Shown here: positions 3,100 to 32,060 of the stretch, in pieces
Position numbering within the stretch: position 1 is the first letter of the stretch
Layout: every line of letters begins with the position of its first letter
Assembly (NCBI GenBank): GCA_963817895.1
Contig: CAWFQB010000007.1
Location: 32,001-96,000, forward strand
Length of the DNA: 64,000 bases
From: an uncultured Chthonomonadaceae bacterium
GTDB lineage: Bacteria > Armatimonadota > Chthonomonadetes > Chthonomonadales > Chthonomonadaceae
Direction: 5' to 3'
Notes under the pieces: generated by a model
Told to the model about the DNA's origin: nothing
The model's database searches: none
The model's input: the letters and a program-made list of their open reading frames with translations, nothing else
Program-made: the position numbers and the translations under genes

Positions 3100-4080
3100 G
3101 TGATTTATGAACACGCGACGGAATTTGCGGGCAAGCCCGTGAAAGACTGGAATCTTGGCGACGCCGCCGACCCGCAGTTTACCTATCGAATTCTGGTGGA
3201 CTACGAGGATGCAACGCTGTGGATGGACAAACTGGCTGCATTTCTGGAAACGCCGGGGGCGGAACAGGCGACCGGGCTGATTGTGGGCAACTGGGGCGAG
3301 GTTGCCAGCGGCGATGATTCCGCCGAACTCGTGGAAGCGCTGACCGTTGCCCGCGACCGCCTGCCCAACCTGACCGCGCTGTTTATGGGCGACCTTGTGG
3401 GCGAAGAGAGCGAACTCTCGTGGATCAACCAAACCGATGTGTCGCCCCTGTTCAGCGCGTATCCCCGGCTGGAACATTTTCGGATACGTGGCGGCGCGGG
3501 ATTGCGCTTTGGTGGACTGCACAACCCACATCTGAAAACGCTGATTGTGGAAACCGGCGGTCTGCCCGTGGAAGCCCTGCAAGACATTCTAAACGCGCAA
3601 CTGCCCAATCTGGAGCATCTGGAAATCTGGCTTGGCGAAGAAAACTACGGCTGGAACGGCAGCATTGACAGCCTGAAACTCCTGATGGAAAACGATCTGT
3701 TTCCTAAACTCGCTTATCTCGGCCTGCGCAACAGCGCCATTTCCGATGCGATTGCCGCCGGATTGGTCAACGCGCCTATCATGCAGCATCTGCGCGTGTT
3801 GGATTTGTCTATGGGAACGCTGTCAGACGAGGGCGCGAAAGCTTTGCTGCAAAGCCCGCACCTGTCCCGGCTGGAAAAACTGGATTTGCACCACCATTAC
3901 CTGTCCGACGCCATGATCGCGCAACTGACCGGCAACCCCGCGCCGGACGCGGCGGCGCAGCCGCCCCTGGAGGGCATTGCCCCCGAACTGGCCCGTTCGC
4001 CCGGAATCGGCATCGTCGTGGATGTCAGCGACCCGCAGCATGAAGAAGAGTATGGGCGCTATGTTGCCATCGGAGAGTGA
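3100..4080 (+). CDS. STM4015-family leucine-rich-repeat protein
   Basis: LRR-like units (LPNLTALFMGD, LPNLEHLEIWLG, FPKLAYLGLRN, LRVLDLSMGTL), ELSWINQTDVSPL motif, C-terminal RYVAIGE; first gene of the operon. Confidence 0.85.
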   Translation: MIYEHATEFAGKPVKDWNLGDAADPQFTYRILVDYEDATLWMDKLAAFLETPGAEQATGLIVGNWGEVASGDDSAELVEALTVARDRLPNLTALFMGDLVGEESELSWINQTDVSPLFSAYPRLEHFRIRGGAGLRFGGLHNPHLKTLIVETGGLPVEALQDILNAQLPNLEHLEIWLGEENYGWNGSIDSLKLLMENDLFPKLAYLGLRNSAISDAIAAGLVNAPIMQHLRVLDLSMGTLSDEGAKALLQSPHLSRLEKLDLHHHYLSDAMIAQLTGNPAPDAAAQPPLEGIAPELARSPGIGIVVDVSDPQHEEEYGRYVAIGE

Positions 4081-5266
4081 AACGCCGGAAATCGAACCGC
4101 TGCCGCCTGTGTCCCGCCCATTTGTCGTGATCGGCAATCCTTTGTGTCCCCGCGTGGATCGGTTTCAAACCGCGCTTGCGGGGTTGGGATTGCCGCCCGC
4201 GCAGGAAATCGCGTGGACGGACATTCTGGCGGGAGCGTCTGTTTGCCCGATGTGGTTCCTCCCGGCGCGATTGTCCGATTGGAAGCGCCCGGAACCGCCT
4301 TTCAACGGAACGCGCATTGCTGGCATTGGGGGCCGACCTGCCCGACCCGGAAGCGAAATACGAGCGTATTCCAAAACACGATGCGGCGAACATGGAGTTT
4401 CGATAAGGGGCGAATCGTCTGCCCCCGGCAATGGTATCTTGGGTTTCAAGCCGTACTGGAAATCGTGGAAGCGCAGTTAGCCGCCTGCGTCCACATTACG
4501 CGCATGAACCACCCGCCCGATATTGCCGTGATGTTCGACAAGCCACGTTGTCAGGAACGATTGCGGCTTGCAGGATTGCCGATTCCGCGCCCGTTGGGAA
4601 TTATCGCCGGATACAACGATCTTGTCGCCAAAATGCAGGCGGCGGATTGCGGGCGCGTGTTCGTGAAACTGGCGCACGGTTCGAGCGCGTCCGGCGTGGT
4701 GGCGTACCGAACGCAGGGCGACAGGCATCAGGCCACGACAACCGTGGAAATGGTAAAGCGGAACGGCAAACTGTTCTTATACAACACCCGCGATATACAG
4801 GTGTATACGCGACCCGAATGTGATTGCGGAACTAATAGATGCGCTGGCGCGGCATCGGGCAATGGCGGAAGAGTGGATACCCAAAGCGGGCATGGACGGA
4901 CACTGTTTCGATCTGCGCGTTGTCGTAATCGGCGGACAGGCGCAGCACGTCGTCGCCCGCCTGAGCCGCAAGCCCATGACCAACCTGCACCTGCGCAATC
5001 CGCGCCGCTCGTGGGAATTTGCGCGGGAATACATTGGCCCTGCAGCCGCCCATGCCGCATTGCAAACCGGTGAGGCCGCCCTGCGCTGTTTTCCCCACAG
5101 CCTGTACGCGGGCATTGATCTGCTGTTCGCGCCCGGCCTGCGCCGCCACGCCGTTCTGGAACTGAACGCTTTCGGCGACCTGCTTCCCGGCACACTCCAC
5201 GAGGGACGCGACACGTACACGGCGGAAATTCTTGCCGCATTGAGTGAGGAAGAAACAACGGATTGA
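4061..5266 (+). CDS. STM4014-family ATP-grasp protein (frameshifted in assembly)
   Basis: Pieces in three frames: VVIGNP, MFDK, VFVKLAHGSSASGV, EEWIPKA, FDLRVVVIGG, PMTNLHL, YAGIDLL, LELNAFGDLLP. Start overlaps the STM4015 stop. Confidence 0.8.
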
Positions 5267-5469
5267 GGAACCGCGAAATACGCGAAATAAACGAAAAGAA
5301 GAACAAAAGGAGAATAGACAGGATTAACAGGATTTTCAGGATTGAACAGGATTACAACAAGACGAAGGCTTGCCCCATCTGTTGTTCTCATCCGTGTTTC
5401 TCCGTGTCCTCCGTGTTCTCCGTGGTTTATCTTTTCTTTTTTCGTTTGTTTCGCGTGTTTTGCGGTTCC
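5267..5469. repeat. Nested inverted short-tandem-repeat element (9-mer units)
   Basis: ggaaccgcgaaatacgcgaaataaacgaaaag ... ttttcgtttgtttcgcgtgttttgcggttcc encloses (acaggatt..)n and (ccgtgttct)n tracts. Confidence 0.8.
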
Positions 5470-5495
5470 CATCGCATTGGAAGTGAGTGGACTAG

Positions 5496-6307
5496 ATGTT
5501 GAACGCGCGGGAACTGGTGGGTACGCATGACGTGCTGTTGGTGACGCTGGATACTCTGCGCTACGATGTGGCGCGGGATATGCTGGCGGCGGGACAAACG
5601 CCGTTTCTGGCTTCGCTGCTGCCCGAACGGGGTTTGGGAGGAGCGGCACACGCCGGGAAGTTTCACGTATGCGGCGCATCAGGCGTTTTTCGCCGGGTTT
5701 CTGCCCACTCCCGCCGCGCCGGGACGCCATCCGCGCCTGTTTGCCGCCCGGTTCGCGGGCAGCGAAACCACAATGGACGGAACCTGCGTGTTCGACGCGC
5801 CCGACATCGTGACCGGATTTGCGGCAACGTGGCTATCATACAGTTTGCATCGGCGGCGTGGGGTTTTTCAACAAGCAAACGGCGCTGGGAAGCGTTCTGC
5901 CGGGTTTGTTCGCGGAAAGCCACTGGTCGTCGGAATTGGGCGTGACCGATCCGCGCTCAACAGAAAATCAGGTTCGGCTTGCCGCGCAAATTCTGAACGG
6001 ATTGCCGCCGGAAAAGCGCGTGTTTCTATTCCTCAACGTATCGGCATTGCATCAGCCCAACCGCTTTTATCTGCCGGGCGCGATGGAGGACACGCTTGAA
6101 TCTCACGCGGCGGCGCTGGCGTATGTGGACAGTCAACTGCCGCCGCTGTTCGCGGCATTGCAGGCGCGCGGCCCGTCGCTGGTTGTTCTGTGTTCCGATC
6201 ACGGCACGGCGTATGGCGAAGACGGCTATGAAGGCCACCGCATCGGCCATTCCGTCGTCTGGACGGTTCCCTACGCCGAGTTTATCTTGCCAGGTGACAT
6301 ACGATGA
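5496..6307 (+). CDS. STM4013/SEN3800-family hydrolase (alkaline phosphatase/sulfatase fold; frameshifted)
   Basis: [59 protein letters not shown]. Confidence 0.85.
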
Positions 6308-6602
6308 TTGTGGAAGCATCAGGAAATTTGCTGGCTGCGGATGTGGACGCTCTGGTAAACACCATCAATACGGTCGGCGTCATGGGTAAAGGGATCGCGC
6401 TGCAATTCAAGCAAGCGTTTCCTGCGAACTTTCGTGCTTATGAAGCAGCCTGTTTGCGCGACAGGAAAACATCGGTTCGCTCGCGCTCCCGCCATTGGGT
6501 TGCGGGTTGGGCGGCTTGCAGTGGAGCGAGGTATGCCCACTCATTGAACAAGCATTCGCTGTCCTGCCGGATGTGGAAATTCGTTTGTATGTGCCGAAAT
6601 AG
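6304..6602 (+). pseudogene. Macrodomain (DarG-like) gene with internal deletion
   Basis: N-terminal [34 protein letters not shown] is joined out of frame to C-terminal [31 protein letters not shown]; the central INFPTK..HW segment is absent. Confidence 0.75.
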
Positions 6603-6626
6603 ACAAGAGTGTAAGGAAGCAACAAA

Positions 6627-8054
6627 TTGACAGTATCGCTTGATGCAACACCCTACGCGGGCTATACCTATGCGTACCCGCATAAGACGGCGTACCGCCC
6701 GCTTGTTCCGCCTGTATCCTTGAAGAATTTGTGGCAGGGCGAGAACCGGGACGCGCTATTCTTATATCTGCATGTGCCGTTTTGCGAGATGCGCTGCGGG
6801 TTCTGCAACCTGTTTACGACCGCGAACCCAAAGCAGAATTTTACGACCGCGTATCTGCAAGCGTTGCGGCGGCAGGCGGTTCAGGTACGGGAAGCGTTGG
6901 GGCAGGCGCGATTTGCGCGGCTTGCCATTGGTGGCGGGTACGCCGACGTTTCTCAACATCGCGGAACTGGAAGAATTGTTCGGGATTGTTACCGATCTGT
7001 ACGGCGTGGAACCGGGTGCAAATTCCCGTTTCTGTGGAAACGTCGCCGCGCACGGCGGAACCGGAGAAATTGACATGGCTGCGCGAACGGGGCGTGGATC
7101 GTATCAGCATGGGCGTACAGAGTTTCTCGAGCCGGAAGTGAACGCTTCGGGACGGGCGCAGAAAACGGCATGGGTGGAAGACGCGCTGGAACACATACGC
7201 GAAGCAGGCTTTCCTACGCTCAATATTGATCTGATTTACGGCCTGCCGCATCAGACGGTCGGCAGTTGGCTGTGTTCGCTGGAAATGGCGTTGCGCTGGC
7301 AGCCGGAAGAGTTGTTTTTGTATCCGCTGTACGTGCGCCCGCTCACCGGATTAGGACGCAAAGCGCAAAAAGTCGCAAAGTTTAAGACTGTCGGGAAGCA
7401 GGTACAACCACAAGGCGCGAAGTTCCGACGGTTTTCGATGACGCTGCATTAGAAGAATGAATAATGCCGCGCTTGCAGGTGATGATATTCGGCTTGCCTG
7501 CTACCGGGCGGGGCGGGAATTGCTGCTGGCGAACGGCTACGCGCAGGTGTCTATGCGGATGTTCACGCGCCTGAAAACCGGTTCCGAAGTTGCAAAGCCG
7601 GATGTGGCGTACTGCTGTCAGGAGGATGGCATGGTGGGGCTTGGCTGTGGCGCGCGTTCCTATACAACACGTTTGCACTACGCCAGCGAGTACGCGGTGG
7701 GCGCGCCGGGAGTGCGCGACATTCTGCGCGATTATGTCGGCAAGACTGCGGAAGCGTTTCAGTTTGCCGATTACGGTTACGCGCTTTCCGAAGCAGAGCA
7801 GAAACGGCGGTTCGTCATTCAATCCCTGCTGCAAACGTCAGGATTGGATCTGAGCGCGTATTTACAGCGGTTCGGAACTCGTTCCCCTCGCGGATTTCCC
7901 CGAACTGGCCGAACTCATCACGCGCGGATTGGCCGAACCCAACGGCAACGCGCTGCGATTAACCCCGGCAGGCATGGAACGCTCGGACAGCATTGGCCCC
8001 TGGCTCTACTCCCGCGAAGTCAACGTCCTGATGCAAACCTACGCGCTGCATTGA
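6627..8054 (+). CDS. STM4012-family HemN-like radical SAM protein (frameshifted)
   Basis: [69 protein letters not shown]. Confidence 0.85.
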
Positions 8055-8068
8055 TTACGATTCTAATA

Positions 8069-8133
8069 GCCCTCAATGGATGGCGTCCACTTGTAGACAT
8101 ACCCCTTCTCCCAAAGAAGCCTAAGCGAAGGGG
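8069..8133 (-). repeat. Dispersed hairpin element, family C (CCCCTCTCCC..GGAGAGGG-GTGTCCACAAGTGGAC-..GTGAGGGC)
   Basis: Reverse copy of the element at 23797, 27802, 36227, 42624 and 45588. Confidence 0.65.
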
Positions 8134-8186
8134 AACTCATAAAGGCAGACGCTAACTACTATTTCACTACGGGACACATTTTGTCA

Positions 8187-8315
8187 GGGGTTGAAAACCC
8201 CTGTCTACATGGCCTGCGGCCAAGCGTCCTTCGGACGCAAATGCTTGTTTACAGTCTCTCGCGTCCGAAGGACGTTTGGCGGAACGCCACTCAGACGGGT
8301 ATTTTCAATACCCGG
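8187..8315. repeat. REP-like composite palindrome, family B (GGGTTGAAACCC / GTCCTTCGGAC)
   Basis: ggggttgaaaacccc, gcgtccttcggacgc ... gcgtccgaaggacgt, cgggtattttcaatacccg; same layout as 32050-32182. Confidence 0.7.
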
Positions 8316-8353
8316 AAACAAGGCGAGCGGTAGTGAAACCGCTATTCAACACT

Positions 8354-9205
8354 ATGGAACTATCAATTCTTTATCGGGGGCCGCTGTCGAGCTGCAATTA
8401 TGGCTGCGATTACTGCCCGTTCGCCAAGCATGTGGAGACGGATGCGGAACATGCGGCGGACGCGGCGGCTTTGCAGCGATTTGTGAATTGGATTACCGGG
8501 CGCGAAGAGGATCAGTTGTCGGTTCTGTTCACGCCGTGGGGTGAGGCATTGGTACGCAAACGGTATCAACGCGCCCTTGTCCATTTGACCAATCTGCCGC
8601 AAACCCGCAAAATCGCTATTCAAACCAATTTATCCTGCCGGCTGGAATGGACGGAAGAGTGCGACAAACAGAAATTGGGATTGTGGGCGACCTATCATCC
8701 GACGCAAACCACACGCGAGTTCTTTTTAGGTCAGTGCCGCAAACTGGACTCGCTTCAGGTGCGGTACAGCGTGGGCGTGGTTGGCATGAAGGAGCATCGG
8801 GACGATATTGAAGCCATGCGCCGGGAACTGCCGCCGCATGTGTACCTGTGGATAAACGCCTACAAGCGCGAAGCTAACTACTACAGCGACGACGAACTGC
8901 GCCACTTCACGCGGATTGACCCGCTTTTCCCCATCAACAACACGCGCCACCCCTCGCAGGGACTCGCCTGCCGCGCGGGAGACAGCGTTATCTCCGTAGA
9001 CGGGGACGGAACCATGCGCCGCTGCCACTTCATCAAAACTCCGATTGGCAACCTGTACGCCCCCGATTTTGCCGACTGTCTGCGTCCCGCCCCCTGTACC
9101 AACAAAACCTGCGGCTGCCACATCGGCTATGTCCACATGCCGCATTTGAAGCTGTACGAGGTGTTTGGGGAGGGCGTTTTGGAAAGGATGAGGGATGAAG
9201 GATGA
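8354..9205 (+). CDS. STM4011-family radical SAM protein with C-terminal Cys-rich (SPASM/Twitch-like) domain
   Basis: YRGPLSSCNYGCDYCPFAK; FTPWGEAL; C-terminal CRAG..DGDGTMRRCHF..IGNL..CTNKTCGCHIG. Confidence 0.85.
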   Translation: MELSILYRGPLSSCNYGCDYCPFAKHVETDAEHAADAAALQRFVNWITGREEDQLSVLFTPWGEALVRKRYQRALVHLTNLPQTRKIAIQTNLSCRLEWTEECDKQKLGLWATYHPTQTTREFFLGQCRKLDSLQVRYSVGVVGMKEHRDDIEAMRRELPPHVYLWINAYKREANYYSDDELRHFTRIDPLFPINNTRHPSQGLACRAGDSVISVDGDGTMRRCHFIKTPIGNLYAPDFADCLRPAPCTNKTCGCHIGYVHMPHLKLYEVFGEGVLERMRDEG

Positions 9206-9316
9206 AGGATGAAGGCAATGCCTTTTCTCTACTTGCCTTCCCCACGTTGAGGATGGGGCTATAAAGAAGCGCATCCTCTTCATCCCTCATCCTTCATCCC
9301 TCATCCTTCATCCTTT
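9183..9316. repeat. Inverted heptamer tandem repeat (GGATGAA)n/(TTCATCC)n, probable bidirectional terminator
   Basis: Visible directly; lies between convergent genes and supplies the STM4011 stop codon. Confidence 0.85.
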
Positions 9317-9317
9317 G

Positions 9318-10439
9318 CTACGTTTCCATCACCGGCTGATACTCGTCGGGATTGTCGAAACCGGCCAACCACGCGGCGGCGCGGCGGCACGTTCGGATTT
9401 CGGGCGGGACGCGCAGCATGTACTCTCGCTCGGTTGAAGGACAGGAAACGGACAGGCAGACGAGCGGTTCGTCACCGGCAATGGGAACGCGCAACAGGCT
9501 TCGCTTTCCGCCGGGATCGGTGTCCGTGTCCAGAACCTCTGCTTTCGCCTGCGCCATGAAGACCTCGTAGCCCATGCGTTCCATCAGGACGCGGCGCAAT
9601 TCCACATTCACCGTTTGCAGTATCTCATTGGGCTGAATGGTTTCCGGCTCAAAGGCGATACGGCGGTCAATGGTCACGCCGCGCCAGCGGATTTGCGCGT
9701 TCGCCACGCCCGGCGGCAGGGACGTGATGCCCGTATTGGCGATATCAATCCATGAGCGAACCCGCAGAGAGGGCGGCAAATCGGTAATGTTGGCGCAGCC
9801 GCTCAGGTCGAGTTGGGATATGTCCGTAAGCCAGTCGGGAAGGGCCGTGAACTGCATACAGCCCCGCGCCACTAATCGGCCTATCTGCACAGTGGCGTGT
9901 CGAGGCCAATGATGCATGCCCAGACAGCCGGAAATATCCAGAAACGAAACGTCCAGCCCCTCCGGCAGGGTTTCCAGACTGGTACAATCGCGCAGCAGCA
10001 GAGAACCGACTTTCAGGCCGACAGGCAACGTTTCCAACACTACGCAGCCGCTGCAATCCAGCCGAAAATCTACGCGCAGGTCGGAAGGCAGACCGTGCAG
10101 AAGCGTGTTGTTCAGGTTCAGTTCATTGCAATGCAGGCCATTTGGAAGGCTTTTCAATCCGGTGCAGCCCGTCAGGTTGAGACAGCGCGTTTTCAGGCCG
10201 TCGGGCAGAGTTTCCAGCGTGTCGCAGCCGCTCAAATCAATGTTGTCAGCCTGCAAACCGGCGGGCAGGGTAGTCAGCCAGTTTCCCCCGCTCAACACAA
10301 GTGAACCGGAAACGCGCAGGTTGGTGGGAGCGCGGTCTTTCAAAATCAACGCTGCCGCCTCTTTTGCCGGAACAGGCGCGTTGTTTTCTGAGGATGTAGT
10401 ATTGAATTCAATATCGCGGTCAAGGAGCAGGGCAGTCAT
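9318..10439 (-). CDS. LRR protein with C-terminal DUF6745-like domain
   Basis: ~20-aa repeats LxxLPxGLxxxxLDLSGC; C-terminal NVELRRVLMERMG..DEPLVCLSVSCPSTEREYMLRVPP..AAAWLAGF; GGAG SD before ATG 10439. Confidence 0.8.
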   Translation of the reverse strand: MTALLLDRDIEFNTTSSENNAPVPAKEAAALILKDRAPTNLRVSGSLVLSGGNWLTTLPAGLQADNIDLSGCDTLETLPDGLKTRCLNLTGCTGLKSLPNGLHCNELNLNNTLLHGLPSDLRVDFRLDCSGCVVLETLPVGLKVGSLLLRDCTSLETLPEGLDVSFLDISGCLGMHHWPRHATVQIGRLVARGCMQFTALPDWLTDISQLDLSGCANITDLPPSLRVRSWIDIANTGITSLPPGVANAQIRWRGVTIDRRIAFEPETIQPNEILQTVNVELRRVLMERMGYEVFMAQAKAEVLDTDTDPGGKRSLLRVPIAGDEPLVCLSVSCPSTEREYMLRVPPEIRTCRRAAAWLAGFDNPDEYQPVMET

Positions 10440-10458
10440 GGCAGATTCTCCGTTCAGA

Positions 10459-10571
10459 GGTGGTTGGTGACTGGTGGTTGGTGGTTGGTGGTTGGTAACT
10501 GCGTCTGCGGAAATGCGCGAAACCTTTAACCAGTACAACCAATCACCAGTCACCAGTCACCAACCACCAAC
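10459..10571. repeat. Inverted heptamer tandem repeat (TGGTTGG/TGACTGG)n
   Basis: ggtggttggtgactggtggttgg... versus ...ccagtcaccagtcaccaaccacc. Confidence 0.8.
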
Positions 10572-10868
10572 TCAGTCAATCACGCGGCGAATGGCAGTGG
10601 GCGTGTATTCGCGCTGGAACCAGAACTTGTAAAGACCCTGCGGCAGCGTGATAGGCTTGTGTTCCTGATGCACAATGCGGGCGGTGTCGCCGGTCACTTC
10701 CAGAAACATTTCGCCCTGATGCTCCCACAGAATGGCGGTTGCGCCATCCTCAATGCGGTGGCTGTGTCCGGTCAGTTCGCCCCGCGCCAGAATGGTGGTT
10801 GCGCGGCGTTTCGCGCTTTCGGGAAGAGCGGGCGCAGCCGCAATCAGAATATCTCCGTGTCTCCACAT
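10572..10868 (-). CDS. Small conserved His-motif protein (98 aa), partner of the DUF6745 gene
   Basis: MWRHGD..RGELTGHSH..VHQEH..LPQGLY..QREYTP..RRVID; AAAGGA SD. Confidence 0.8.
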   Translation of the reverse strand: MWRHGDILIAAAPALPESAKRRATTILARGELTGHSHRIEDGATAILWEHQGEMFLEVTGDTARIVHQEHKPITLPQGLYKFWFQREYTPTAIRRVID

Positions 10869-11151: not shown

Positions 11152-12903
11152 ATGTTGTTCAAACGCCGCTCTCGTTCCTCTTTGCCGTTGTTGCGTTCTT
11201 TTCTGCCGATCACGTTGAGTTTGTGCGCGATGCTGCCGGTTGTTACCCCGCCTGCCCGCGCGCATGGCAGGTTCGCGGGTTCGGGCAGCCAGTTGTTCGC
11301 TGAAGGCAAGTTCAATCAAGCGCGGGATGCTTATGCGTCCGCCGTCAGGAGCGATCCCAAAAACCCGGTTTTGCGCGTGGGGCTGTTGCGGACGTATCTG
11401 CGTCTGGACGACTGGCAGAACTGCGTGTCCGAAGGGCAAAAATTCGTTGCCGCGCTGCCTGCCAGTGCCGACGCGCATGGCCTGCTCAGTCTGGGGCTGA
11501 TGCGGGGCGGGCGTCCCAAACAGGCCGAAACCGAGGCCTACAAGTCGCTTGCTCTGGATGCCAGAGACTACTGGGGGCTTGTGGCGCGTGGGCGCGTCCT
11601 GACCTTCAATGAGCAAAAAGGCGAGGCCCGCGAAACGCTTACCCACGCCTTTGATATGCACCCCGACTGGCCCGACGCGCCCTTTTATCTGCTTCAAACT
11701 CTGGAGGAGAAGACCGGCGACGAGGAGAGGCAAAAAATCTATAAAGCCTACCTCAAAACCAATCCCAAAGGCCACCCGCACGACCGAACGATGGATAGCC
11801 TGTCCCGCGCGATGGATACCTACAACCCCGCCAACAGTCGTGAAGCGGACAAACCGGACAAAACTACAGGCGACCCAAAACCGGACGGGGAAAAAAAGGC
11901 GGACGGCAATAAGAAACCCGGCAGGAAGAGAGAAGCGCCGACGTTCGAGGCTATCGGCGCGATCAATGAACAGAAATTGAAGGACGCGGATGAGGGCAAA
12001 ATCAAGCCTGTTACCATTACCATCCCCTTTGAGCGCCTCAAACAGGACAACCAGACGATTATCATTCCTCTGAGCATCAACGGCGTCAGTATGCGGCTGC
12101 TGTTCGATACGGGGGCGGGACACGGCATTTCCGTTACCGGGGATGCCGCCGAGCGCTTAAACCTGCCCGCCATTTACAAATCGTTCGCGCGCGGCGTGAG
12201 CGGCAAGGAAGAGATACGGGTGTGCCGCGCCAAAGAGATGAAAATCGGCGCGCAGATGTTCAAGAACATCCCCGTAGATACTACCGCGAACGCCATTTCA
12301 CCCGACTTTGACGGGCTGATCGGTGGGGCGGTATTCGAGGAGTACGCCGTCACCGTAGATTACGAGAACAACAATCTGGTGCTGACGCGGGGCAAAACGG
12401 CAGCCGCGCCCGCGCCCGAAGAGGGCAATCATATCACGACGGTTCCCTTCCACGATTTTGGCGGCTACATAATTGTGCCGCTGAAACTGGAAGATCGCAG
12501 CGAGGCGGAATGGGGATTGCTGGATACGGGGGCGCAGGGTATGGGCGTCCTCTCCTATATTACCGCGTCACAACTGGCGAAAAAACAGCATACGGACGCG
12601 CAGGCGAAAGTCCACATTAACCAACGGCTTGGGGTCGGCACAACCAACACGGGCTTCGACGCCATTTTGTTCGAGTTCGCCATTGATTTGGGGTTGGTCT
12701 ACAACGCCGGAACGCCCTTCTTCATGGAGATGAAGCCCATTTACGGCGCGTCCATGATTGACACGGAAGTGAACCGCAGTTTCGACTTTCATCTGAGCGC
12801 GATTGTGGGCATATCGTACCTTGCCGAGGCCAAGCGCGTCACGTTCGACTACCCGCGCCACCTGCTCACAATGGAGGCCGGCCCGAAAACCGCCCAACCG
12901 TAG
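11152..12903 (+). CDS. Secreted TPR protein with two retropepsin-like aspartyl protease domains
   Basis: Signal peptide, TPR-like helices, LLFDTGAG..DGLIG and LLDTGAQ..SAIVG motifs. Confidence 0.8.
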   Translation: MLFKRRSRSSLPLLRSFLPITLSLCAMLPVVTPPARAHGRFAGSGSQLFAEGKFNQARDAYASAVRSDPKNPVLRVGLLRTYLRLDDWQNCVSEGQKFVAALPASADAHGLLSLGLMRGGRPKQAETEAYKSLALDARDYWGLVARGRVLTFNEQKGEARETLTHAFDMHPDWPDAPFYLLQTLEEKTGDEERQKIYKAYLKTNPKGHPHDRTMDSLSRAMDTYNPANSREADKPDKTTGDPKPDGEKKADGNKKPGRKREAPTFEAIGAINEQKLKDADEGKIKPVTITIPFERLKQDNQTIIIPLSINGVSMRLLFDTGAGHGISVTGDAAERLNLPAIYKSFARGVSGKEEIRVCRAKEMKIGAQMFKNIPVDTTANAISPDFDGLIGGAVFEEYAVTVDYENNNLVLTRGKTAAAPAPEEGNHITTVPFHDFGGYIIVPLKLEDRSEAEWGLLDTGAQGMGVLSYITASQLAKKQHTDAQAKVHINQRLGVGTTNTGFDAILFEFAIDLGLVYNAGTPFFMEMKPIYGASMIDTEVNRSFDFHLSAIVGISYLAEAKRVTFDYPRHLLTMEAGPKTAQP

Positions 12904-13320: not shown

Positions 13321-15651
13321 CTATTCGGACAGAGCAACGGTCAGCATTTCGCTTTCATCATTTGGCTTGAGGAGAACGCCCTCCGTTCCTGTTTGCATCG
13401 TTCCGCCGGTTATGGAAGCAGCAGTCTGAACGCCCACCAGCAGTATTTGCCAGTTGTGGTTGGCCCCCTCTGCGCGGAATTGTATCTGTGTCCCGGTTCG
13501 GCGCGTTGTCACTGTCAGCGCCGGATTGCCGCTCAGGTCGGGAATCGTGGTGACAATCTCCTTTTCCGATTCCAATTCGTATACGCGCAGGGTCACGCCG
13601 TCTGCAAAGTCGTAATCCGGCTTGTCGTTATTGCTGCCAACCGGAATGACCGAATGGGGGCGAACCAGCAGGGGAACGCTCATAAAATCGTGCGTTTCGC
13701 GTACCCAACCCGGCCCGCTGATTACTTTGCCCGTGAAGAAGTTCGTCCATTTGCCTTCGGGAACGTAGTAGTCCACGACGCCGTTTGTGGTGAAAACGGG
13801 CGCGACGAGCAGCGAGTCACCAAGCAGATATTGCCGGTCCAGCGTGTCGCAGGCGGGATCATCGGGAAATTCCAGCATCATGGCCCGCATCGGCCGGTAC
13901 GCCCGTCCGGTGGGATTGAACCGCCTGCCCGAACAGATAGGGCATCAGGCGGCACTTCAGTTTGGTGAAAAAGCGCAGCGTGTCTACGGCCTCGTCATCG
14001 AACAGCCAGGGAACTCGGTACGACGAACTGCCGTGCAGGCGGCTGTGCGACGAAAGCAGGCCAAACGCGATCCAGCGCTTGTACACTTCGGCCGGTGGCG
14101 TGCCCTCAAAGCCGCCGATGTCGTGACTCCAGAAGCCGAAGCCGGACAGACACAGCGACAGTCCGCCGCGCAGGCTTTCCGCCATAGACTCAAAACTGGA
14201 ATAGCAGTCGCCGCCCCAGTGCACGGGAAACTGCTGCCTGCCCGCCGTTGCCGACCGCGCAAACAGAACGGCTTCTCCCCTGCCCCGCTTTTCCTCCAAA
14301 ACATCGAAGACGGCCTTATTATAAAGGTAAGAGTAGTAGTTGTGCATCTTCTGCGGGTCGGAACCATCCTGCATACACGACATCGGTGGGAATACGCTCG
14401 CCAAAATCGGTTTTGAAGCAGTCCACGCCCATGTCCAGCAGCGCGCGCAGTTTGTCGCCGTACCACTGGCAGGCGTCCGGGTTGGTAAAATCCACAATGC
14501 CCATGCCCGCCTGCCACTGATCCGTCTGCCACACATCGCCATTCGGCTTTTTGAGCAGATAACCCCCGCCTTGCCCTCCGCGAACAGCGGCGAGAGCTGC
14601 GCGATATAGGGATTGATCCAGACGCAGATGTGCAGGCCGCGCTCTTTTAGCCGTTGCAGCATGGCGGGCGGGTCGGGAAACGCGCGTGGCATCCCACTCG
14701 AAATCGCACCAGCGAAACTCACGCATCCAGAAGCAGTCGAAATGAAAAACGTGCAGCGGCAAATCCCGATCCGCCATGCCCTGTATGAAACTCGTCACGG
14801 TCTGCTCGTCATAACTTGTGGTAAACGAGGTTGTCAGCCACAGCCCGAACGACCACGCGGGCGGTAGGGCAGGCTTGCCGGTCAGGGCGCGTATATTTCG
14901 CCAGCACCTCTTTGGGCGTCGGGCCGTAAATCACAAAGTAATCCAGCGTCTGCCCTCGAACGCTGAACTGAACGCGCGAAACCTTTTCCGATGCCACTTC
15001 AAACGACACGTCTTCGGGGTGATTGACGAACACGCCGTACCCCCGGTTGGTCAGATAAAACGGCACATTCTTATACGCCTGTTCGCTGCCGGTTCCGCCG
15101 TCCCTGTTCCACGTTTCCACGACCTGCCCGTTCTTGACAAAGGCCGTAAACCGCTCGCCCAATCCATACACGCACTCGCCCACACCCAGAGCAAGCTGTT
15201 CGTGCAGATACGGCCCGTTGCCCTCGACTTCCGCCAGTCCCAGCCCTTTTTGCCCGCTTTTCGTAATGGTGTTTCCATTGCCGACAAACTCCACTCCCCA
15301 CCCTTCGCCCCGCGCCACCTTCACGGCTAAATTGCCGCTGGCGAGGGTAGCGAATTCCTTATCCGCGCTCACCGTCACGCCTGCCGCTCCTCCTGCAAGC
15401 AGCGGAAACTGCGGACTGGCTTCCCGCTCGCCGCCGAAATGCGTGACCTGTACGCAAATCACGTCCAGCAGGGGCGAGGAGTAACGCACGGTCAATAATG
15501 GACCGTCCAGCGTGTTACCCCGGTTGTGAATCCGTTTCGCGGGAACCTGAACGACAAGCGCGTCCGGCAGGGTTTCCACCTCATACGCCTGTCCCGCATA
15601 AAATGCGCGAACGCCCTTCCGCATCATCCAGTTGCCATCCGTAAACTTCAT
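13321..15651 (-). CDS. yicI: Alpha-xylosidase, GH31 (frameshifted)
   Basis: MKFTDGNW, YGLGERFTAFVKNGQ, FHFDCFWM, DCFKTDFGERIP, FWSHDIGGFE, LSSHSRLHGSSSYRVPW. Confidence 0.9.
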
Positions 15652-15667
15652 TGTCAAACCTCTTTTG

Positions 15668-15770
15668 TTTGTCTTGAACCATGATTTATGTGATTAGGTG
15701 ATTAGCATGAGGAACGCGCCTCCTCAATCATGGTAATCCGAAAATCATAAGCATCATGGTTCAAGACAAA
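15668..15770. repeat. Inverted repeat element with perfect 18-bp ends and internal 9-mer units
   Basis: tttgtcttgaaccatgat ... atcatggttcaagacaaa. Confidence 0.8.
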
Positions 15771-17822
15771 TTACGTTGTTTCTTCCAGGATACGGAGTCC
15801 GCGCCCCGGCAATGTCACCGCGTCGGTAAAGGTTTCCCCGGACAGTAAATCTGTGTAACTGCCGTTAGGAAGGGTGACTTCTGAAGGGGTGGGCGCGTGG
15901 TTGAGCAGGTACAGCAGGGGGTTGTCGTTGCCCGTTACGCGCTGCGTCACTTCTACATTAGGCGGCGGAATTGCGCCCCCGGCAAGCGGGGAATGAATGT
16001 CGTGCGCGGCGCAAATGGCCTGCAAGATGGCGCGTAAACCGACTTCTTCTAATTGCGTTGCAAGAAAGTACGCGAGTCCCTGCCCTGCCCGGTTGCGGGT
16101 GAAGGCCGGCTCGTCCGCGTAGAAATCATCCGTGTACGCGCCGAGCGTTTCCGCGCCCTCCATACGCAGGCGGTCGCACAGCAGGCCGGAAGAGAATACG
16201 GTATCGGCGGCGATGCTTCCGAAAGATTGCGTCAGGCGGATGCCATTCGTTTTGGCTTGGGGAAGCGCGTCCGTTTCCTCCACGCTCAGGCCGAGGACGT
16301 CACGCAGCGGGCCGGGACTGCCGCCCTCGTGGATCAGGTCGTTTTCGTCCACCAGTCCGCTGAAAAACGTCGTCAGGAACGAGGCTCCGGCCTGAACGCG
16401 ATGTTCAATCCGCGCGGCGTCTTCCGTTCGCAGCATCGTCAGCAGGGGCGCGACAATCACCTCATAGCGGGACAAATCGGCGTCGGGCGCAACGATGTCG
16501 GTTTGTATCCCAAGATTGTGCAGCGCGCCGTAATAGGCGCGGCACACCTTCACGTAATCCAAATCCACGCTTGGCCCGCTGGAAAAGCGCAGCCCCCACC
16601 AGTTTTCCCAATCGAACAGCACGGCCACACGCGCCGGGACGCGCCCGCCCAATGTGCGACTGCCCAACTGTTCCAGTTCCCGCCCCAGTTCCGCCACTTC
16701 CCGAAACACGCGATTGTCGGGGCTGCCGCTATGCTCCACAATCGCGCCGTGCAGTTTTTCGATGCTGCCCCGTGACCGCCGCCACTGGAAATACATCACG
16801 CTGTCGGCCCCCTGCGCGATTGCCTGATAGGACTGGACACGCAAGGCTCCCGGCGGCTTCAGGGCGTTGTAGGGCATCCAGTTCTGCTGCGAGGGGCTTT
16901 GCTCCATCAGCAGAAACGGCTGGCCCTCCTTCAATCCGCGCATCAGGGCGTGGTTGAAAGCGACATTGGCTATCGGCTCTTCGGGGCGCGGGTAGTTGTC
17001 CCACGAAACCACGTCCATATCCTGCGCCCATTTGCGATAGTTGAGCGGGAAGAACGCGCCCATCAGGTTTGTGGTCACGGGAATGTCGGGCGTGATTTCA
17101 CGCAAAACCGTCGATTCCGCCTTGAAACAGTTCAGCAGGCTGTCGGACTGAAAGCGGTAATAGTCCAGTCGCAAGCCCTGCATACTGCGTTCGCCATTGG
17201 AAAACGGTGGCTCGATCTGCGACCAATCCGTGTAGGTGTGGCTCCAGAACGCCGTCACCCACCGCCGGTTCAGTTCGTCCAGACTGCCATAACGAACTTG
17301 CAGCCAATCGCGAAACGCGGACGCGCACTGTTCGCAATAACAGTACGTGCCGTACTCGTTGCTGACGTGCCACATCACCAGCGCGGGATGATCTTTGTAG
17401 CGTTCGGCAATGCGCCGCGCGATTCCGGTAGACAGACGGCGGAAGTTGGGCGAGTTCGGGCAAAAACTGTGCCTGTTGCCGTGCCTGCGCCGGTGTCCGT
17501 TCTCATCCGTGACCAGCACATCCGGGTATTTCTGGTCCAGCCACGCGGGTTGGGCGGCGGTCGCGGTGGCAAGGCAGGCCGACACGCCGCTTTTCGCCAG
17601 CCGGTCCAGAATGTCATCCAGCCAGTCAAACGTGAACGTGTTCTCGTCGGGCTGCAAACTGACCCACCCGAAAATGGGCGTAGAAACGATGTTGACATGC
17701 GCCATTCGCATCAGGCGCATATCCTCGTCCCATATCTCGCGCGGCCACTGTTCCGGGTTGTAATCCCCGCCATAAAGCACAGCAGGCAGGCGCGTCACAA
17801 AATCATCAGGCGTAGCGGGCAT
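15771..17822 (-). CDS. Beta-galactosidase, GH42
   Basis: YGGDYNPEQW, WHVSNEYG, WDNYP, LMEQSPS, YFQWRRSRGSIEKLHGA. Confidence 0.92.
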   Translation of the reverse strand: MPATPDDFVTRLPAVLYGGDYNPEQWPREIWDEDMRLMRMAHVNIVSTPIFGWVSLQPDENTFTFDWLDDILDRLAKSGVSACLATATAAQPAWLDQKYPDVLVTDENGHRRRHGNRHSFCPNSPNFRRLSTGIARRIAERYKDHPALVMWHVSNEYGTYCYCEQCASAFRDWLQVRYGSLDELNRRWVTAFWSHTYTDWSQIEPPFSNGERSMQGLRLDYYRFQSDSLLNCFKAESTVLREITPDIPVTTNLMGAFFPLNYRKWAQDMDVVSWDNYPRPEEPIANVAFNHALMRGLKEGQPFLLMEQSPSQQNWMPYNALKPPGALRVQSYQAIAQGADSVMYFQWRRSRGSIEKLHGAIVEHSGSPDNRVFREVAELGRELEQLGSRTLGGRVPARVAVLFDWENWWGLRFSSGPSVDLDYVKVCRAYYGALHNLGIQTDIVAPDADLSRYEVIVAPLLTMLRTEDAARIEHRVQAGASFLTTFFSGLVDENDLIHEGGSPGPLRDVLGLSVEETDALPQAKTNGIRLTQSFGSIAADTVFSSGLLCDRLRMEGAETLGAYTDDFYADEPAFTRNRAGQGLAYFLATQLEEVGLRAILQAICAAHDIHSPLAGGAIPPPNVEVTQRVTGNDNPLLYLLNHAPTPSEVTLPNGSYTDLLSGETFTDAVTLPGRGLRILEETT

Positions 17823-22628: not shown

Positions 22629-22641
22629 ACTCTTCCTTTCA

Positions 22642-22758
22642 GTTCAGGTGTTCAGGTGTTCGGGTGTTCAGGACAATGCATCATTAAACGTCTGTTGGCG
22701 CGGCAAGGTTTATAATTCAGTTCCCGAACACCTGAACACCTGAACACCTGAACACCTG
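22642..22758. repeat. Inverted octamer tandem repeat (GTTCAGGT)n/(ACCTGAAC)n
   Basis: Visible directly between divergent genes; same unit recurs at about 41424-41454. Confidence 0.85.
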
Positions 22759-22771
22759 TAGAGGAACTTTT

Positions 22772-31589: not shown

Positions 31590-32060
31590 ATGCCTGATCT
31601 TTTTCCGCCCACTGTAGGCGTATTTACCAGAAATCACAAACTGTACATTGAGGAGGCTGTAGCCAAGAAGGATATTGTCCTCCGTTCCAACAAGCGCTGG
31701 ACCAGCGTAGAAGAACACCTACAGAAAGGTGAAATCTGCATTGTCTACCTTGCCGTTGTTGATGATGGGCCAATAGTACAGTACAAAGCCTGCTTGGAAG
31801 AAGTTCTACTTAATCCAATACGCGGTCAGCGGGCTACGGACGACCTACTTAAATTAACTCATTCGGGAATTGACGAAGACGTACTGTTAAAAATGGACGG
31901 AAAGCCCGTTCTGACACTTTATCGTCTGACAGACTGTGAGAAAATCACACCGTTTCCCATGACGGAGTTAATCAAAATCAAGGGCGGCGAGCCTATCAGC
32001 GCCGAATACGGTTACGGCTATACGCTTGTCAAGCCACGTAGCGAGGATACGCCGGGTTGA
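31590..32060 (+). CDS. Hypothetical protein (lower GC)
   Basis: 156-aa ORF with AAGGA SD; no family recognised. Confidence 0.6.
   Translation: MPDLFPPTVGVFTRNHKLYIEEAVAKKDIVLRSNKRWTSVEEHLQKGEICIVYLAVVDDGPIVQYKACLEEVLLNPIRGQRATDDLLKLTHSGIDEDVLLKMDGKPVLTLYRLTDCEKITPFPMTELIKIKGGEPISAEYGYGYTLVKPRSEDTPG

Follow-up and report, generated by a model that had tools for sequence, protein, structure and literature searches.

In this study, we analysed a 64,000-nucleotide stretch of DNA from an uncultured Chthonomonadaceae bacterium (positions 32,001 to 96,000 of contig CAWFQB010000007.1, here C7, of a 14-contig, 7.5-Mb assembly with about 57% GC and 81% completeness; hereafter the window), which carries the five-gene STM4015–STM4011 cassette and, convergent to it, a pair of genes encoding a DUF6745 protein and a small protein with conserved histidine motifs, here called the His protein. 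On sequence grounds the best candidate substrate of the cassette enzymes is the C-terminal tail of STM4015, and we propose, with a probability of roughly 0.45, that the five genes form a system that modifies this protein tail or uses it as a carrier, in which a ligase would act on the terminal glutamate of STM4015 and the other enzymes would tailor the adduct. What is added here is the measured, partial linkage of this catalogued cassette to the DUF6745/His pair. Seven protein families that occur across many bacterial phyla without an assigned reaction thereby gain two direct handles, namely the terminal glutamate of STM4015 and a predicted DUF6745–His heterodimer, in which the His partner stands for some 7,800 clusters of one family and matches no known fold.

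The STM4015–STM4011 cassette

All five NCBIfam families were matched by adjacent genes in the order STM4015-STM4014-STM4013-STM4012-STM4011, which is the content and order that an initial annotation had read from the sequence alone, and the profile search which that annotation called for matched DUF6745 (PF20530) as well. Each cassette and pair gene is present in one copy in the source genome. The acidic leucine-rich repeat (LRR) protein STM4015, which ends in RYVAIGE (3100..4080, plus strand; NF038076, 308 bits for a cut-off of 275), and the radical S-adenosylmethionine (SAM) enzyme STM4011, which has five extra C-terminal cysteines (8354..9205, plus strand; NF038073, 409 bits for a cut-off of 200), are both intact. 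Between them and on the same strand lie the ATP-grasp ligase STM4014 (4077..5266, start approximate; NF038074), the alkaline-phosphatase-superfamily enzyme STM4013 with a threonine nucleophile (5496..6307; NF038075) and the HemN-like radical SAM enzyme STM4012 (6627..8054; NF006067), each of which was matched in three to four consecutive NCBIfam pieces; owing to frameshifts, the STM4012 pieces individually fall under the whole-protein cut-off. The window agrees with the cassette catalogued in NCBIfam in all five families and in how they are ordered and oriented; it differs in having no HAD gene and in carrying the His/DUF6745 pair as well as a macrodomain remnant. The closest intact cassette, with which the window is compared below, is L006:5046-14518; its flanks are SIR2, DUF4253 and SWIM genes.

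In genome contigs, 599 pattern matches were obtained, 589 of which were confirmed as relatives, and the cassette locus set consists of the best 80 STM4011 loci plus one from G011, a relative of the source genome (n=81). STM4012 is present in 76 of these 81 loci, STM4013 in 68, STM4015 in 61 and STM4014 in 56, and many of the missing genes reflect contig ends. The clustering of the cassette genes is far above chance and their distribution is patchy, G011 being the only one among 60 relatives to have STM4011. The families are thus syntenic, as had been supposed, and no functional account of STM4011–STM4015 was found in the literature searched, where the names appear in tables only, supplements and subscription papers lying outside the search.

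A conserved glutamate at the end of STM4015

STM4015 has a homologue of solved structure (PDB 2RA8, E 2e-73). That its RYVAIGE tail might be a substrate had been raised in the initial annotation, and the comparison of cassette loci speaks for this candidate: among 90 closed open reading frames (ORFs) of at least 250 aa, 85 have glutamate as the C-terminal residue, and all five that lack it are extra copies in cyanobacterial loci. The consensus of the tail is R-[YF]-x-x-x-x-E, preceded by an acidic stretch. In tandem fusions of two STM4015 units the motif stands at the free end only (4/4), and the C-termini of the four enzymes are not conserved. Tailed paralogues occur in tandem, up to five or six together, and some carry WGR fronts; since the tail is common to paralogues that differ in their front ends, several proteins could be served by one set of enzymes. 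Among non-LRR proteins, neither the 2,273 ORFs from the loci nor the source genome yielded one with a convincing tail. Of four long STM4014 matches, all singletons, three resemble frameshift read-throughs and one (P0169) a deletion junction, and they are therefore counted neither for nor against the tail.

The tail is accompanied by a close association of STM4015 with the ligase gene. In a scripted count of 55 loci, STM4015 lies directly 5' of STM4014 in 50; judged by coordinates, four of the remaining five resemble start-calling artefacts, and in the seven loci in which the cassette is split the two genes stay together. STM4015 has a median pI of 4.5 and STM4014 one of 8.2; a pattern of acidic carrier and basic enzyme is reported for amino-group carriers and their enzymes in one study (PMC11726168), and a like charge pattern for RimK, LysX and TTL in another (PMC10375531).

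The STM4015 paralogue arrays of up to five or six copies lie in loci L050, L059-L062, L066, L074 and L081. In the cyanobacterial arrays, the paralogues have an N-terminal segment in common with WD40 proteins that are interspersed among them and have no glutamate tail. In the planctomycete loci L013, L015 and L027 the WGR/LRR paralogues end in GDIE, GDYE and GDME, still Glu-terminal, and a divergent STM4014 adjoins them.

The four enzymes

In STM4014 the residues K137, K179, S184/G188, R262, D329 and E343-x-N345 are invariant in 35/35 rows. They cover all the ATP-grasp catalytic features listed in PMC4431377, namely the linker Lys, the strand-2 Lys with its GxS loop, Asp, ExN and Arg. When the window gene is read through its frameshifts, the FDK, VKxxxGS, DxR, D and ExN motifs are retained and the product is 58% identical to that of L006. 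The best PDB matches of STM4014 are LysX and RimK-family enzymes, although these matches are weak (E 0.008-0.05). The likeness to the LysW/LysX and RimK/S6 systems lies in an ATP-grasp enzyme of the peptide-forming group that stands beside an acidic protein with a terminal glutamate (PMC11726168, PMC10375531). The present system differs from LysW/LysX in that the partner is a 326-aa LRR protein rather than a small zinc-ribbon carrier, and in that STM4014 matches LysX at an E value of only 0.008, with YheC/D and sugar-transfer Pfam families nearer. Moreover, the tail of LysW is EDWGE whereas that of STM4015 is RYxxxxE, the tailoring enzymes are radical SAM proteins and no conserved release peptidase accompanies them.

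STM4013 had been described as a sulfatase-fold hydrolase, and the alkaline-phosphatase/sulfatase fold stands. T57, H184, D233, H234 and H246 are invariant, one metal site is clear and the best PDB match is to an NPP enzyme (E 6e-6). The invariant threonine aligns with the nucleophile threonine of NPP, which argues against a sulfatase, the formylglycine nucleophile of sulfatases arising from the Cys/Ser in CxPxR. STM4013 is therefore more likely a phosphodiesterase, or perhaps a phosphotransferase, than a sulfatase. STM4012 retains CxxxCxxC and GGGTP and matches HemN (1OLT, E 3e-55) and then the methyltransferase NocN (E 4e-36) over most of its length, which places it near the HemN-like class C radical SAM methyltransferases such as NocN and ChuW; against the HemN, HemW and HutW models it scores far below the cut-offs, as scored on pieces. 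In STM4011 the CxxxCxxC cysteines C14, C18 and C21 as well as C206, C224, C248, C253 and C255 are invariant in 32 rows. The earlier description of this protein as SPASM/Twitch-like has its basis in the five additional cysteines, but the protein has no SPASM Pfam match, reaches only E 0.008 with TIGR04133 and has no PDB relative by sequence.

In the tail-modification scheme that we propose, STM4014 would activate a carboxyl group of the free C-terminal glutamate of STM4015 and join an amine to it, by analogy with LysX/LysW and RimK/S6. Judged by their folds, STM4012 may then transfer a one-carbon unit as HemN-like methyltransferases do, STM4011 may perform a second radical step, and STM4013 may add or remove a phosphoester through its threonine. 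If the tail is indeed modified, this would be a new chemistry at protein C-termini that involves two radical SAM enzymes.

The His/DUF6745 pair

The gene convergent to STM4011 (9318..10439, minus strand) encodes an intact protein of 373 aa with an LRR head and a C-terminal DUF6745 domain (PF20530, E 4e-19), and is followed on the same strand by the intact gene of the His protein (10572..10868; 98 aa, all-beta, matching phrog_27831). LRR repeats are present in the former, as the designation 'second LRR gene' had implied; however, the N-terminal head varies in the family, being LRR here and tetrad or helical repeats elsewhere, and the gene is better seen as coding for a DUF6745 protein with interchangeable repeats that belongs with the His gene in a module shared with phages. 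The same adjacent pair with the same motifs is found in phages, where DUF6745 (PF20530, phrog_31813) accompanies phrog_27831, as in gp174/gp175 of Ma-LMM01; the window pair differs in its LRR head, the phage head consisting of tetrad repeats, and in standing beside an enzyme cassette that is absent from the viral copies. DUF6745 adjoins the His gene in 52/80 viral and 54/80 metagenome loci, and 26 of the 28 viral loci without DUF6745 end no more than 821 bases from the His gene. These contig ends (L172-L251) are probably due to the repeat tract of DUF6745 breaking the assembly. Among annotated phage records, all ten with one pair member also match the other. Two DUF6745 copies each occur in viral loci L172, L198 and L216. 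The searched literature yielded nothing on DUF6745/PF20530, and a transcriptome paper on Ma-LMM01 names the neighbours of gp174/175 as middle genes while leaving these two themselves unnamed.

The His family comprises 7,803 clusters at 50% identity, and the protein has no Pfam or NCBIfam family match. Its motifs are RxGD, GExTGHxH, HxEH, QREY and a terminal aspartate, and the residues R3, D6, E31, H35, H37, H67, E69, H70, Q85, E87 and D98 are conserved to at least 97% in 300 rows, a pattern that suggests a metal site. The model of the His protein has a pLDDT of 88.5 and a best fold-search Z of 3.3, that of the DUF6745 C-terminal domain a pLDDT of 91 and a best Z of 4.5. Neither gave a PDB fold match or a Foldseek match at E<=0.001, which does not by itself prove a new fold, and an Atlas search returned unnamed clusters only. 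Compared with cupins, the His model reaches Z 2.1-2.2 at an rmsd of about 2.9 over 55-58 aligned residues, which is inside the noise.

The two proteins are predicted to form a complex. In the pairwise complex prediction, a check which had been proposed at the outset, His and DUF6745 scored 0.74 and the best control 0.02, and the prediction runs agreed in at least 90% of contacts with a partner pLDDT of at least 85. Of 157 solved complexes 116 attain the score mark used, as do 2 of 215 mismatched pairs; these rates apply only roughly here, own alignments having been used and zinc included. In the predicted interface the RVP and WLAG motifs and the last seven residues of DUF6745 lie against the N-terminus and the QREY motif of the His protein, and this involvement of its last residues would explain the conserved ending of DUF6745. 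No fusion of His with DUF6745 or with cassette proteins was seen among 16 longer His matches. The terminal aspartate of the His protein was considered as a second cassette substrate and rejected, since it is equally constant (84/84) in viral loci without a cassette.

Linkage of the pair to the cassette

Of the best 80 STM4011 loci, 30 have DUF6745 next to the cassette, and these 30 belong to at least seven phyla; among the loci with full flanks the count is 21/51. The next commonest accessory is a HAD hydrolase, in 4 loci. The neighbourhood comparison thus confirmed the expected co-occurrence. The 47 loci that have both show five layouts, the pair being convergent and downstream in 21, co-oriented before STM4015 in 10, divergent before STM4015 in nine, before STM4013 in three and co-oriented after STM4011 in three, and in one further locus it is inserted; it is co-oriented with cassette genes in 16/47. 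In genome samples from which the centre genome was left out, and in which only some candidates per genome were scored with a His profile from cassette-linked copies, 340 actinomycete genomes gave 20 with His, 34 with STM4011 and 19 with both, all 19 within 7 kb, and 200 Chloroflexota genomes gave seven with His, five with STM4011 and five with both, the latter being close kin with the two on different contigs. Among the 60 relatives of the source genome, G011 alone has STM4011 and the LRR-headed DUF6745. In the tree, the linked pairs are placed among viral rows in two separate clades, one of LRR type (support 100) and one of actinomycetes (support 99), which suggests two independent recruitments of the pair, although a single origin is not rejected (p-AU 0.068, with 68 of 120 rows used).

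The pair may accordingly be pictured as an optional accessory of the cassette, a predicted heterodimer of the His protein with the C-terminal domain of DUF6745 that probably has a metal site and whose repeat head can be exchanged. A bolder extension, to which we give only a slim chance, is that the cassette writes a radical-SAM-elaborated covalent tag on the glutamate tail of a diversifying set of LRR proteins and that His/DUF6745 is its metal-dependent reader or eraser, with a fold not described before. Bacteria would then keep the pair next to the writer to control or release the tag, while phages would carry thousands of variants acting on proteins of the host. Were the pair to act on the tail, this would be the first function for a very common phage module; a writer with its reader or eraser would amount to an undescribed protein-tagging axis in phage–host conflict.

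Integrity of the cassette copy and the macrodomain remnant

The initial annotation called the operon complete, and all five genes are indeed present, but STM4014, STM4013 and STM4012 hold 11 one-base insertions or deletions (indels) in a frameshift-aware alignment to L006: four in STM4014 (at about 4235, 4306, 4398 and 4807), two in STM4013 (about 5628 and 5827) and five in STM4012 (about 6936, 7021, 7127, 7447 and 7883). The same alignment shows no substitution-type stops in the aligned frames of the three genes. Most of the 11 sit at short base runs, all catalytic motifs are kept, and the read-throughs are 56-74% identical to L006, much as the intact genes are. Frame changes are common throughout the assembly: 43 were found in the 80 kb of 62 test genes, of which 20 are hit, up to six times, and counting at the protein level found 30 among 123 genes. 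Seven genes neighbouring the cassette have eight frame changes, and the neighbour gene at 13399-15650 has five frameshifts. Related-strain contigs of run X1 show compensating indels at at least five sites (4230, 4809, 5825, 7126 and 7879). The 11 indels are probably assembly errors, as these comparisons suggest, and this copy of the cassette was probably intact in life, apart from a dead macrodomain insert. Compared with L006, STM4012 is also longer by an insertion of some 35 codons at about 7360-7470, which contains one of the indels.

The macrodomain insert, overlooked in the initial annotation, is a DarG-like remnant between STM4013 and STM4012 (6304..6603, plus strand; NF048014, PF01661). 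It scores 88 bits for a DarG cut-off of 250 and matches positions 3-52 and 102-153 of NF048014, with 53-101 (about 49 codons) missing; the deleted middle part holds the catalytic lysine of DarG. The start of the remnant overlaps the stop of STM4013 (ATGA), to which the gene is translationally coupled, and its reading frame is broken. Compared with DarTG, it lacks the C-terminal DarG domain, no DarT was seen beside it and its flanks are STM4013 and STM4012. A run X1 contig joins 6291 directly to 6633 without the remnant, and no cassette locus from other genomes contains such a gene, by which its regular membership of the cassette was ruled out. It is thus a lineage-specific insert, which possibly was once a working one.

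Alternative explanations

Several of our results weigh against the tail-modification proposal or the tie of the pair to it. The distance correlation of STM4014 with STM4015 (rho 0.42) is lower than that with the other enzymes (0.61-0.78), the Pfam neighbours of STM4014 are YheC/D in 25/35 and sugar-transfer ATP-grasps in 26/35 but RimK in 5/35, and its DxR arginine, being common to peptide-forming ATP-grasps (PMC4431377), is no pointer to a protein substrate. No conserved release peptidase was found among the cassette neighbours, and the tail could serve a structural purpose or docking instead. With respect to the pair, the actinomycete cases are related, so that 19/20 stands for far fewer than 19 events; in 200 cyanobacterial genomes His occurs in 22, STM4011 in four and both in two, in 160 Planctomycetota genomes His occurs in five, STM4011 in two (partial) and both in none, and the pair is not beside 50/80 cassettes, 30 of these 50 genomes having no His match and 20 having His elsewhere. 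Given this partial linkage across samples, the pair is a recurrent but optional companion, neither necessary nor sufficient, and not a core member.

These points leave room for a pathway without a protein carrier, in which a small molecule is made, or a nucleotide modified, by the four enzymes and STM4015 is a scaffold or sensor on which the tail docks. The NPP-like character of STM4013, the HAD hydrolase beside the cassette in four loci, the STM4013-12-11 block lying apart from STM4015-14 in 7/55 loci and, for STM4014, nearest Pfam families other than RimK and the lack of a co-evolution signal with STM4015 are all in line with such a pathway; a docking tail, however, would not need an invariant free glutamate end, and the neighbours include no recurrent gene for transport, release or tailoring; we regard it as rather unlikely. 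A response to nucleic-acid damage or phage attack, with WGR/LRR proteins as sensors, the enzymes as writers of a tag or signal and His/DUF6745 as the module that reads or removes it, would fit the fusion of WGR to STM4015 in several loci, and also a four-locus Obscuribacterales cluster in which genes for an ATP-dependent DNA ligase with one or two WGR domains directly follow STM4011 (L011:10975-13185, L014:10905-12470, L017:7740-9932 and also L008). SIR2, SWIM, SUKH, MoxR/vWA and macrodomain neighbours, the patchy distribution (1/60 relatives), the paralogue arrays and the abundance of the partner module in phages point the same way. Yet each such neighbour is present in at most 4/80 loci (86 proteins scanned, 79 of them chosen from 330 neighbours), and PADLOC 2.0 had no match for STM4015, STM4011, DUF6745, His, STM4014 or STM4013, its only hits being DarG (the remnant), a weak PDC-M51A match to the HemN-fold STM4012 and WGR in a neighbour. 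We consider such a response unlikely as an account of its own, and it is compatible with modification of the STM4015 tail rather than its exclusive alternative.

It is somewhat unlikely, in our estimate, that the His/DUF6745 pair is a phage-derived hitchhiker that has no functional tie to the cassette and was inherited after one or two fixation events. Cassette genes are present in 0/80 viral His/DUF6745 loci, the pair exists independently in cyanobacteria and Planctomycetota, the p-AU value for a single origin is above rejection and in the five related Chloroflexota genomes pair and STM4011 are on different contigs, all as a hitchhiker would have it. The pair nevertheless stays beside the cassette through five rearrangements, including a co-oriented run with STM4015 or STM4013, no other neighbour approaches its frequency, and the structurally different LRR-headed and helical DUF6745 types are both linked, in separate well-supported clades. 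A doubt of another kind concerns this copy alone, which might be a decaying pseudo-operon: 11 indels in about 3.4 kb exceed the genome mean of 0.54 per kb (the counting methods differ), the 49-codon deletion in the macrodomain gene looks real, and repeats separate genes that overlap in other genomes. Because of this indel density decay keeps a small chance, but the breaks are all of a single base, mostly at short runs, without substitution stops and with the catalytic motifs kept, and both the frequency of frameshifts in the assembly test genes and at 13399-15650 and the compensating indels of related strains speak for sequence error.

Other features of the locus

Four dispersed repeats lie between the genes described above, at 5267..5475 (84 places in the genome, with many copies in G001/G002), 8160..8340 (103 places), 9206..9317 between the convergent STM4011 and DUF6745 genes (82 places) and 10460..10571 (27 places). 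The intergenic repeats at 5267..5475 and 8160..8340 are considered to be outside the system. The four differ from each other, and two are also present in genomes of the same genus. An Rfam scan of the locus gave no match, and counts of promoters and terminators there were near shuffled levels.

In cyanobacterial loci L252, L253, L262, L263 and L267-L269 a His/DUF6745 pair with short LRR lies far from the cassette, often together with a second pair of the helical type. The cassette of the window is preceded by a gene on the minus strand (975-2873) for a glycine-rich, repetitive protein of 632 aa with a conserved-looking C-terminal domain and without a Pfam or NCBIfam match. Divergent from the His gene, on the plus strand at 11152-12903, is a gene for a protein with TPR and a double aspartyl protease, which was not found beside other cassettes, and more dispersed repeats occur near 15665-15775 and 22640-22760.

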